Positions 42,703-48,565 of a stretch of DNA of 64,000 bases are shown piece after piece. The position numbers and the translations under genes are program-made. Origin of the DNA: Malacoraja senta (taxonomy: Eukaryota). The stretch lies in contig CM075995.1 in NCBI GenBank assembly GCA_038087875.1, positions 2,110,001 through 2,174,000 on the forward strand, written 5' to 3'. Position 1 is the first letter of the stretch, and the number at the start of each line of letters is the position of its first letter. The notes below the pieces were generated by a model, which was not told where the DNA came from, did no database searches, and worked only from the letters and a program-made list of their open reading frames with translations.

Positions 42703-45276
42703 AGGTTGATCATACGCTGAATAATCCAACCAGAATTTTGTTTGGAAGTGGAAAGAAATAATATAAATTGCATTCATTGCAACGTGTAAAAGGAGATGAG
42801 ATACTGTATTGTAATTTTGCTGCATGTCATTGTGGTATATATCATGTCTTGATTGGTGAATATGTTTAGATTGTGACTTTATTTGAAGCAGAAATAATAT
42901 GTGAATGCTTCATTGACCATAATTCTGACTGATAGCTACGCACTTCGTCCGAGCACATTATCGCACGTGTCATGCAAGCCGTCTTAAATGACCACCTAAA
43001 CTGTCATTTGGCAACATAAAAAGCTGCCTAGGGTGCCCGGCTGGCAACAGGGAAAAAAAGTTAAGCGAGAGCCCAGTACTATCACAACGTTTAAGAAACA
43101 TTTAGACAGGTACATGGATGGGACAGGTTTGGAGGGATATGGGCCAAACGCAGGTAGGTGGGACTCGTGTAGATGGGACATGTTGGCCAGTGTGGACAAG
43201 TTGGGTCGAAGGGCCTATTTCCACCTGTAAGACTCTATTTAGCTTAACATCAGGTATCAGAACAATAGTTTGGTTGGGGTAGCTGAATTAAGACGATCAG
43301 ACGATTTGCATGGATTTAGATAATCCATTAATTGAACTGAAACTTTTTGAAGATGTGACCTAGTCAGTGGAATGTCCACTATGGCAGGATTAGCCAGCAA
43401 CTAGTCTCACTCCTGCAAACTGCTGTGTACGCTTGACTATATTCTCCACATTTTAAAAAGTATTTGAGCAGTTGTAGAGCATTTTCAAAAGCAGTCTAAA
43501 TGTGTAGGAAGGAACTACAGATGCTAGTTTAAACCGTAGACACAAAATGCTGGAGTAACTCAGCGGGACAGGCAGCATCTCTGGAGAGAAGGAATGGGTG
43601 ACGTTTCGGGTCGAGACAATGCATTCCTGTGCTGTACATTCTATGCAAACCTACTAATCCCACGGAAAAGAATGACATTGTGAATACACAGCTTTTATTA
43701 TATTTAAAACACTCAAAGGGAGCCAATATCGTCAAATACCCACGGCAGCTTTGCAATGCTGACATTTTACTCCAACCATCAGGAAGAAAGTACTGGAACC
43801 TGAAAACCTGTGACCACCAGGTTCAAGAATAACATCCCTTCATCTGACCTAATTTTTAAGTTGTAACTAGTCAAGAGAAATGTCCATAATGTACTTATTT
43901 AATTTTAAAAATCCAGGTATCCCTCAAACGAGGTCATCACTTATACCATAGAACTGAAAAGAAATTCTTGAGGGCAGTCTCAGCATAAAATAACTTAACT
44001 TTAGAAAGGAGATGAGGAGGAATTTCTATAGCCAGAGCGTGACGAATCTGTGGATTTCATTGCCACAGACGGCTGTGGAGGCCAAGTCATTGGTTATTTT
44101 TAAAGCGGAGAATTACAGGTTCTTGATTATAAGAAGAATGGGGTTGAGAAGGAAAGATAGATCAGCCATGATTGAATGATGGAGTAGACTTGCTGGACCA
44201 AAAAGCCTAATTCTGCTAATGACTTATAAACGTGGAAACAAGGAATTGCAGGTGCTGGTTTACCTGCAAAAGACACAAAATGCTGGAGTTACTCAGCGGG
44301 TCAGCCAGAATCCCGGGAGAACATGAATAGATGACGTTTCGGGTCAGAACACAAACATCTCAGGTCGGAGCACCCGAAACGTCACCTAGCCATGTTCTCC
44401 ATGGATTATGACTGACCTGCTGAGTTCTCCATCGATTATGACTGACCTCAAGAAATCCTTGACCTTGTTGTGACATGAGCTGTTTTGGAGTGTGGGAAGA
44501 GGAAATTATGTCCAAATGGCTATGACGAATGGTGTGGTAAGAACTATTCATTGTATTCAACTTATATACGTGAAGGAAAACAAAATCTTGTATCCAGGTT
44601 CGCCAACAACACAAGAACATGAGTCACTGAACCTCCTGCAAGACAGTGCCTCAGGGCTGGTGATAACTTGCTCCCACCCTACGTCTGTGCATTCTAAAGT
44701 AGTGGGAGGATTCATGGTGGAATTCACACCCACCACAGGTGGAGTAAGTGTTGCTTGACAAGGCCAGTGGGTGAGCAGTGTTGGAGATGGAGCACTCCGC
44801 TGCTATTTGCACTTGGCATCCACTAGTTCCTGAAGTCACTATAACAGCTATCAACAAAAACACATTACAGGGCTACCCAACATTGGGTGAGAGTTGGGAG
44901 TGAGAAATTGCGAGAGATGAAGCCCGAGGGAGCGTAGGGGGAGGGGGGGAGGATCCTCTTTCAGTACCTCTTTCCTGTTTTCCCCCCCATATCCCTTGAT
45001 TTCATTAGCCCCAAGAACTAAATGTAACTGTGGCAGAGAATTCCACAGATTCACAACTCTCTGCGTGAAGAAAGTTTGTCTTCATCTCAGTCCTAACTGG
45101 CCTACCCTTTATTCTTAAACTGTGACCCCTGGTTCTGAACTCCCCCAACATCGGAAACATTTTTCTTGCAGTTACAGTAAGTGAAAAATCTAGCAGACAA
45201 GCAGGATGCTTTATCCAACCACTCCCATTTGAAGTCCACTATCTTCCACCGTGTCTAGCCAGTGCTTGGTACTTAC

Positions 45277-45518
45277 TTCCAGCAGCCACTGGTTGTCCTC
45301 CAGGATGCCCCGAGCCGCAGCCTGATCCATGCCGGTCACCTGGACGAATTTGGCACAGAGACTCTCACGGCAGCGGCGCAACGCTTCCGACGCCTCCGAC
45401 AGCCCTGAGGCTGCTCCATGGCCGGAGCTGCAGTGAGCGACTCGCCAGCCAGGCAAACACTTGCCAGCCCCGCTCCCCGTCCCCGCCGCTGCTTCTGCTT
45501 CCAACTCCCGTGGCCCAT
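45277..45518 (-). pseudogene. TDP2: TDP2-like exon 1 fragment (N-terminal UBA-like domain) with intact GTAAGT donor; both ATGs are out of frame
   Basis: RRCRESLCAKFVQVTGMDQAAARGILEDNQWLLE|gtaagt aligns with human TDP2 KKRRLLCVEFASVASCDAAVAQCFLAENDWEME, and the phase-0 boundary falls where I recall the human exon 1 ending. The ATGs at 45419 and 45518 give spans of 143 and 242 nt to the donor, neither a multiple of 3. Confidence 0.65.
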
Positions 45519-45653
45519 GCAGTTGATATGAGTTTTGAAATTTTCGTTGATCACAGAATTTCTCACGACAGTGTGAGAGAAATTTGTGATCAGCGTGAGA
45601 ATTTGGCGAAATGCGTGATTCTCACGCTCAATGCATGAGAGTTGGTAGCCCTG

Positions 45654-46452
45654 CCTCTCTATCCCCCTATCACCCCCCCCCCTCTCTCCCCCCACTCCCA
45701 CCTCACTCTCCCCCCTCTATTCCACTCTCTCCTCTCACCCCCCCTCTCTCTCCCCCTGTCCCCCTCCCCCTCTGTCTCTCCCTCTCTCCGTCTCCCCCTC
45801 TCTCTCCCCCACTCCCACCTCACTCTCCCCCTCTATTCCACTCTCTCCTCTCACCCCCTCTCTCTCCCCCGTCCCCCTCCTCTCTCTCCCCCTCTCCCAC
45901 CTCACTCTCCCCCTCCTCCTCTCTCCCCCTCTTTTTTCCCCAAACTCTCTCTCCCCCTCTTTCCCCTAACTCTCTCTCCCCCTCCCTCCCCCTCTTTCTC
46001 CTCTATCTCCCCCTCTCCACACACTCTCTGTCCCTCTCTCTCTCTCATCTTTCTCTCTCACCTCTCTATGTCCCCTCTCTCTCTCTCTCTCCTCCTCTCT
46101 CCCGCCAACTCTCCCTCGCACCTCACTCTCCCCCTTTCTCTTTCTCCTGTCTCTATCTCCTCTTTCTCTTTGCCCCCCCTCTCTCTCTCTCTCTCTCTTT
46201 CCCCGTTTCTCTTTCCCCCCTCCCTCTTCCCCCTCTCTTTTACCACCCCTCTCTCCCCCCCTCCCTCTCCCCCTTCTCTCCCACCTCACTCTCCCCCTCT
46301 CACCTCTCTCTATCTCCCCCTCCCCTTCTCTCCTCTCTCTCCCTTACCTCTCTCTCCCTCTCTCCTCTCCCCATTCTCTCCCCCTCTCTCTCCTCTCACC
46401 CCCCTCTCTCTCCCCACCCGTCTCCTTCCCCCCTATCTCTCCCCCTCCCTTT
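45654..46452. repeat. CT-rich polypyrimidine low-complexity tract
   Basis: Almost exclusively C and T. It produces the spurious Pro/Ser/Leu ORF 45611-46663. Confidence 0.95.
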
Positions 46453-46453
46453 G

Positions 46454-46650
46454 AGAGTCTCTGTCCCTTCGGCACAAAGACTCTCACGGCAGCCGGGCAA
46501 TGCTTCCGACGCCTCCGACAGCACTGAAGCTGCTCCATGGCCGGAGCTGCAGCGAGCGACTCGCCAGCCCCGCAAACACTCGCCAGCCCCGCTCCCGGCA
46601 TCTGTCCCCGCCACTGCTTCAGCCCCGGCTCTCCAACACCCGCGGCCCAT
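46454..46650 (-). pseudogene. TDP2: Second, 3'-truncated copy of the TDP2-like exon fragment
   Basis: Reads MGRGCWRAGAEAVAGTDAGSGAGECLRGWRVARCSSGHGAASVLSEASEALPGCRESLCAE, then breaks off. Homologous to 45352-45518. Confidence 0.6.
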
Positions 46651-47084
46651 GCAGTTTATATAAGTTTTGAAATTTTCGTTGATCACATAATTTCTCACGA
46701 GAGCGTGAGAAATTTGTGATCAGCGTGAGAACGTGAGAATTTGTCGAAATGAGTGATTATCACGCTCAAAGCGTGAGAGTTGGCAGTCTGACATTACAAT
46801 TAAATGACAATTCATGACTTGCCATTGGGAATGCTTCAACCTTACAATTTCTTAAGATGACTTGCAGATACAATTTCCAAATCTGCTGATAAATTGCGAA
46901 GAGGGCACTAGGCTACAATAATTTTATGGAGACAAAAGAAACTGCAGATGCAGGGATCTTGCCCAGAAAGCACAGAACGCAAAGCATTGGAGTATCGCAG
47001 CGGGTTGTCTGACTCACTGTGTTATTCCAGTACATTGTGTTCTAGAAAAGAAGTATTTTATACTGTATTTGCTAATCTAACACA

Positions 47085-48365: not shown

Positions 48366-48565
48366 NNNNNNNNNNNNNNNNNNNNNNNNNNNNNNNNNNN
48401 NNNNNNNNNNNNNNNNNNNNNNNNNNNNNNNNNNNNNNNNNNNNNNNNNNNNNNNNNNNNNNNNNNNNNNNNNNNNNNNNNNNNNNNNNNNNNNNNNNNN
48501 NNNNNNNNNNNNNNNNNNNNNNNNNNNNNNNNNNNNNNNNNNNNNNNNNNNNNNNNNNNNNNNNN
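48366..48565. other. Assembly gap (200 N)
   Basis: Run of n characters. Confidence 1.

Follow-up and report, generated by a model that had tools for sequence, protein, structure and literature searches.

When the letters of a gene are closed on both sides by the ends of a transposon, the question is whether they belong to the gene itself or to a copy that moves. This is the case at 44868-46790 in a 64,000-nt stretch of the skate Malacoraja senta (assembly GCA_038087875.1, contig CM075995.1, positions 2,110,001 to 2,174,000 of the forward strand), which we call the window. The original prediction was that a DNA transposon there carries the first exon, splice donor and intron start of a TDP2-like gene, and that the gene lies elsewhere. 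We found that this is a mobile, multi-copy, DNA-level copy of TDP2 exon 1. The genome holds at least 978 of them, and native TDP2, a tandem pair, lies on this contig at a distance of about 2.5 Mb. We are highly confident of the reading as a whole, in which the window element is a broken, non-autonomous cut-and-paste copy from a family that has placed the TDP2 5' end at about 1000 sites, likely through a two-step relay and likely as a neutral passenger.

We begin with the exon. The minus-strand frame RESLCAKFVQVTGMDQAAARGILEDNQWLLE terminates at 45277, with the donor GTAAGT directly after it at 45276-45271, just as had been read from the letters. The exon peptide scored above the Pfam cut-off for UBA_4 (E 2.4e-5), and 32 of its 37 compared residues (86%) are identical to L. 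erinacea TDP2. The donor is in phase 0 and stands at the native TDP2 position. Searching the window by TBLASTN with the full TDP2 protein matched exon 1 alone (E 1.5e-14) and no further TDP2 exon, all remaining matches having E of 0.4 or more, which agrees with what had been seen by eye. NSFL1C/p47, previously named as a less likely identity, was rejected, as it gave a protein E of 0.96 only, against about 89% DNA identity between the copies and the TDP2 exon plus intron.

The exon of this copy is 143 nt long, versus 180 nt in native TDP2 exon 1, and two deletions in it shift the frame. The start codon at 45419 is kept, yet the ATG and the UBA domain are in different frames: the frame opened by the ATG ends at codon 28, and in the UBA-like frame no ATG precedes the domain. 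The inverted termini and the duplicated ACATTA outside them are both present, and the element is laid out as follows.

44862..44867, no strand: left target-site duplication (TSD), ACATTA, 6 bp, read from the sequence.
44868..44953, minus strand: 3' end of the outer element, consisting of the inverted repeat 44868-44881 and a subterminal stretch; 86% identical to the 3' end of the full copy L010.
Between 44953 and 44961: gap in the family interior, with about 750 nt absent.
44963..45276, minus strand: captured start of TDP2 intron 1, with the donor GTAAGT at 45276-45271; contiguous alignment to native copies A and B.
About 45028-45170, minus strand: CR1-like piece inside the captured intron, present in the native intron too.
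45277..45419, minus strand: 143 nt of captured TDP2 exon 1, running from the start codon (MEQPQ) to WLLE; UBA_4 profile score, TDP2 protein and DNA alignment.
45420..45496, minus strand: captured TDP2 leader (exon 1 5' of MEQPQ); alignment to the native copies.
45497..45653, minus strand: internal copy of the outer element's 5' end, with subterminal repeats and the inverted repeat 45641-45653.
45654..46467, no strand: CT-rich low-complexity tract (GA-rich on the minus strand) between both 5' ends, common to young-subfamily copies.
46468..46790, minus strand: outermost 5' end, with a decayed inverted repeat 46779-46790 (one base short), subterminal repeats and a shortened second copy of the TDP2 leader with the beginning of the exon.
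46791..46796, no strand: right TSD, ACATTA, read from the sequence.

The second, truncated 5' end at 46468-46790 is 84% identical to 45349-45648, and this duplicated arrangement is common to the young subfamily as well. The window copy belongs to that subfamily: the inner ends and about 750 nt are gone, and it is frameshifted. The leader region is an in-frame extension in the native gene, and longer N-termini are seen in two TDP2 proteins.

Is the exon single-copy? Our DNA search of the 1.94-Gb genome returned 2674 candidates, of which 40 were scored. All 40 were near full length; 39 were at 90-92% identity and the remaining one was the window itself. A 20-mer from the exon end had at least 978 genome matches at one mismatch or fewer, and a 23-mer from the outer 3' end had at least 1565, with no match to the control in either case. 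For TSDs and reading frames we took, by position, 60 of the first 66 exact exon-end matches on C1. Both outer ends were present in 41 of these copies, and the TSD is exact at 5-7 bp in 32 of the 41 (6 bp in 18, 7 bp in 12 and 5 bp in 2). Nine had none, and for some of the nine the internal terminus alone was caught. The same termini at different flanks are what the original prediction had called for, and the 6-bp ACATTA of the window agrees with the TSD lengths of the family. Exact TSDs were also present in 12 of 14 copies among the top DNA matches; those matches had suggested a fixed 7-bp TSD, which the position-based sample replaced with a mix of 6 and 7 bp.

The insertion can also be followed in other organisms, as 14 sequencing runs from seven organism labels contain at least half of the sampled family words; the low shares in X18-X20 and the blanks in X21-X23 do not count as evidence. 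At the window site organism A is filled, and its contig is identical and may be the source itself, so it is not independent. In organisms B, C and D, single flank contigs diverge at 44868/44869 and go on with 323, 301 and 310 unlike letters. An empty site is expected to continue with CA, so that the match ends at 44869, and C and D fit this. The site appears to be empty in three of the four other organisms compared; the expected empty site is thus apparent in B, C and D and absent in A.

The true TDP2 locus, which had been presumed to lie elsewhere, is a tandem pair at C19:4.60-4.71 Mb on the contig of the window (paralogue B at C19:4603402-4646618 and paralogue A at C19:4674572-4712516). Each paralogue has seven exons, both look intact in the aligned exons, and the native TDP2 of this genome is closest to skate proteins. 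The nearest family termini are more than 20 kb from native exon 1 of copy A, and none were found near copy B. The window element aligns to both natives from 45496 through the exon and donor and into the CR1-like piece. Because this alignment runs contiguously through exon, donor and scrap, the CR1-like scrap is a piece of native intron 1. It did not enter as a passenger of its own. Since intron sequence is carried, the capture was from DNA and not from mRNA, and the element is no retrocopy.

The old, longer copies show two carriers, one inside the other. Their order is outer terminus, about 390 nt, inner 5' end, TDP2 cargo, inner 3' end, about 1.9 kb and outer terminus. Searching for the undeleted exon-linker motif gave 13 matches, namely the two natives and 11 transposon copies. 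Among these 11 long-linker copies the inner 5' end is present in eight, both inner ends are present in four, and the outer 5' terminus was found in none. The TSDs of the four two-ended inner elements are 5, 5, 6 and 6 bp, the last two being one duplicated locus. One free inner element carries about 1.16 kb of cargo, which begins some 200-235 nt before MEQPQ and ends within intron 1, and in the nested copy L076 the inner TSD is preserved on both sides (by eye). At the cargo joints we counted, by eye, 3 and 2 nt of microhomology, which fits template switching and is not above chance. The outer element at L138 lacks the TDP2 insert and carries, at another point, an inner-type element with other cargo. 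The outer family packs several cargos. Our exact guess at the empty outer-element junction had no genome matches, and a gapped pattern had 229, mostly to another repeat.

That other repeat (L139-L156, around 1400-1550) has more than 200 copies and has 35-150 nt in common with the interior of the outer element, often as an inverted pair. Two further elements (L047:2337-6275 and L050:1134-6051) have the same outer termini as the family, with other cargo and nested repeats; the L047 element is inside an intron of TDP2 copy A and the L050 element is in or beside the TDP2 locus.

Mean identity within groups is 0.885 for inner, 0.907 for old, 0.934 for mid and 0.957 for young copies, while every group is 0.88-0.90 identical to the natives. 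The rise from inner through old and mid to young is in line with the proposed inner-first order. In a tree of 45 hand-picked rows and 369 columns, support is limited to two groups, the native pair (100/99) and the young clade (93/86). The main linker deletions are 18, 24 and 42 nt, and the donor is GTAAGT in 21 of 26 younger copies and GTAGGT in 22 of 28 older ones.

We believe that the family likely formed in three steps. First, a small inner element picked up some 1.16 kb of TDP2 genomic DNA and moved with TSDs of 5-6 bp; its intermediates are found in the genome, and the repair mechanism is presumed. Next, an inner copy inserted into an outer element whose inverted termini are 13 bp long; this outer element, found in both filled and empty forms, then amplified the cargo with TSDs of 6-7 bp. 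Last, as the subfamilies record, the inner ends were deleted, the exon linker became shorter, GTAGGT was replaced by GTAAGT and a second 5' end arose, probably in that order, which led to the young form. The family is presumably mobilised by a transposase supplied in trans. Once inserted, the copies are likely methylated in the germ line, and they lose their reading frame at a neutral rate.

What kind of element is this? It is a terminal inverted repeat (TIR) element, likely of the hAT superfamily, and its outer terminus resembles the termini of the Blackjack lineage. The outer element showed no transposase remnant, as no long coding frame was found in the 3' halves of seven old copies or in two elements with the same termini and other cargo. 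TSDs of 5-7 bp with short TIRs are those of the hAT5/hAT6 type. The groups hAT5, hAT6 and hAT7 are defined by TSDs of 5, 6 and 7 bp, and hAT7 is described from fungi (PMC12730594). The 5-6 bp of the inner element and the 6-7 bp of the outer one fit these groups, yet here TSD length is mixed within one family. We also considered the P superfamily because the P-like Pdre2 of zebrafish has a 13-bp inverted repeat, and 9 of the 13 positions agree with our outer terminus (by eye); however, Pdre2 makes 8-bp TSDs, unlike the skate element (PMC10983969). An exact 8-bp TSD is present in none of the 41 two-ended copies (one has 8 bp at one mismatch) and in 1 of 14 among the top DNA matches, and no P-type transposase was found between family termini in the 20 loci examined of 150 listed. 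On both counts the element does not fit the P superfamily.

The copies decay neutrally in bulk. We dropped two near-duplicates and three poor alignments from the sample of 60, and in the remaining 55 copies we counted non-CpG changes with 21 selected bases omitted and three subfamily sites masked. This gave 93 non-synonymous and 47 synonymous changes, for a ratio (pN/pS) of 0.87 (p 0.25), with three stops, and 19 of the 21 indels shift the frame. In a separate count by group, pN/pS is 2.07 in the young copies (29), 1.14 in the old (15) and 1.13 in the inner (8). CpG transitions run at 12.0% versus 2.4% (5x) across the 55 copies counted first. By established CpG chemistry this high rate makes germ-line methylation of the copies likely, unlike the native exon 1, where CpG observed/expected is 0.87.

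Several observations weigh against the reading of a neutral, two-step, hAT-mobilised family. The frame from ATG to donor is open in 29 of 60 sampled copies and the GT is kept in 57 of 60, although sampling by exact exon ends favours intact copies, and the linker deletions of 18, 24 and 42 nt are all in frame. Five copies ranked by protein similarity have a pN/pS of 0.07. We attribute this value to the way those copies were chosen, and for that reason set purifying selection aside. Of 20 empty-junction matches examined, one is the empty outer element and 19 are another repeat, and the tree does not separate the old, mid and inner copies from one another. None of the 45 hAT loci that we examined, taken from 150 listed out of 1648 candidates, had a hAT transposase between family termini (25 of the 45 had 1.5 kb of flank only), which adds to the P-like result above. 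Finally, the right-flank match at the empty window site is read from the stop position alone.

The alternatives give the cargo some other role, or no mobility at all. It is doubtful, in our view, that the relay has scattered the TDP2 exon through skate genomes as several hundred frame-intact, splice-ready, ubiquitin-binding first exons, of which some were recruited as new 5' exons or passed changes back to native exon 1. We regard as unlikely a mobile first-exon cassette, in which some copies would use the captured leader, ATG and strong donor to splice the UBA-like module onto downstream host exons, with selection preserving a few. The open frames and kept GT counted above would serve such a cassette, as would the consensus donor GTAAGT in the younger-allele copies, and chimerism is common among transcribed Pack-TIRs in an animal survey (PMC8277862). 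Family sequence is present in all four RNA-like runs, with termini, exon and intron covered at a contig depth that does not rank expression. However, among the loose ends listed in the contigs of these four runs no chimeric splice from the family donor was found. The only loose end listed at the donor position is the native exon 1-exon 2 joint, in runs X15 and X16 of one study of organism C; its 30 letters translate as exon 2 of paralogue B (X15 was flagged as probably DNA, though it contains the spliced joint). Contigs in X17 and X18 cross the donor unspliced. Protein searches, which were word- or cluster-limited, gave native TDP2 and short unnamed open reading frames and no fused protein with the UBA-like module, and the one short frame inspected runs past the donor into the intron. 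The suggestion in the original prediction that the donor might create chimeric transcripts thus found no support in these data. Neutral decay in bulk, fast CpG loss and the frameshift of the window copy also speak against a cassette, and none of 120 unique-sequence open reading frames in the window, a weak test for short exons, scored above the Pfam cut-off as a host exon.

That the cargo persists or matters through small RNAs against TDP2, or through ectopic conversion with native exon 1, seems to us a little less likely again. TDP2 of A. radiata and L. erinacea resembles transposon copies in two ways: its Leu-to-Gln change is also found in the mid and young subfamilies, and its linker lacks the 18 nt that are deleted in one copy (L124/L036). 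Neither native here has either change, and R. longicauda TDP2 keeps the Leu. These shared changes would be explained by exchange between copies and the native exon, whichever way it went, or by conversion of one paralogue by the other. Paralogues A and B are 98.3% identical in exon 1 versus 85-90% in exons 2-5, which is a sign of conversion at exon 1. But exons 6-7 are also 94-97% alike, the direction of exchange cannot be read from proteins, and paralogue conversion explains the pattern equally well. Short repeats flank the 18-nt deletion (by eye), which can arise more than once, and the CpG ratio of native exon 1 shows no visible germ-line silencing of the source. We give almost no weight to a real TDP2 first exon, a segmental duplication or a retrocopy that merely happens to have transposon ends close to it. 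The element does share contig and strand with the native pair. However, native exons 2-7 are upstream and 2.5 Mb off, each gene with an exon 1 of its own, exon 1 alone is at the window site, and about 1000 copies have distinct flanks and TSDs; the carried intron argues against a retrocopy. A single-copy exon spliced to TDP2 exons 2 onward, the case that would have overturned the prediction, is not what the genome holds. We therefore return to the nested, mobile and probably neutral passenger.

How does this passenger compare with known systems? Pack-MULEs have long Mutator TIRs and 9-bp TSDs, whereas the skate element has 13-bp termini, TSDs of 5-7 bp and a vertebrate host. Plant Pack-MULEs are alike in the DNA-level capture of GC-rich 5' gene fragments that are then amplified (PMC8277862), and high-copy gene-fragment carriers are known among Helitrons. 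A survey of Pack-TIRs in 100 animal genomes has four multicopy cases (Tan et al. 2021, PMC8277862), with two frog families of three and five copies and a median cargo of 224 bp. The multicopy Pack-TIRs are found at a large distance from their parent copies and tend to carry GC-rich sequence, such as the 291-bp piece of the CAPSL 5' untranslated region in hAT-N8_XT (PMC8277862). The skate family resembles them in having host sequence in a TIR element, an element-free parent copy and distinct TSDs (PMC8277862). It differs in its copy number (at least 978), its cargo of about 1.16 kb with a full coding first exon and donor, and its two nested carriers with several subfamilies across species (PMC8277862). 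Ssk-FB4 is expressed as a gene, and no such expression is shown for the skate family (PMC8277862). With enclosed host sequence that is not itself a transposable element, an element-free parent, a carried intron and distinct TSDs and flanks, this is an unusually high-copy, nested, multicopy Pack-TIR and a putative neutral passenger.

Multicopy animal Pack-TIRs are rare and small in this one survey, as far as its accessible text goes, and the skate family is more than 100x larger (PMC8277862). We found no prior account of a TDP2-carrying skate family in the titles and abstract openings of the literature (Repbase and Dfam were not compared). One genome preserves the parent gene, the free inner carrier, the nested form, the empty outer carrier and the deletion subfamilies, so the capture mechanism and the fate of about 1000 parallel exon insertions become testable across skate species. 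If the doubtful recruitment and feedback reading were true, the family would act in a vertebrate as a reservoir for exon shuffling and gene conversion on a mass scale. For annotation, TDP2-like matches in skates should be treated with caution, as nearly all are transposon copies.

The transposase searches also turned up other families. A young P-element family (L262-L281, for example C1:237358686-237366579) has at least 150 transposase matches, elements of 7.5-8.5 kb, open frames of up to some 790 aa, a first exon that by eye resembles THAP, and copies that are mostly 94-99% identical; it is possibly recently active. It has termini of its own, with an exact 8-bp TSD in seven of nine two-ended copies, and shares no sequence with the TDP2 element. 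We found no report of a P-element family in cartilaginous fish among literature titles. There are also several multi-copy hAT transposase families (L099-L123, L217-L236), some with frames of 400-710 aa and many on small contigs. About 67% of the window itself consists of repeats matched in other loci examined, and a 200-base run of N, either an assembly gap or a withheld stretch, is at 48366-48565.

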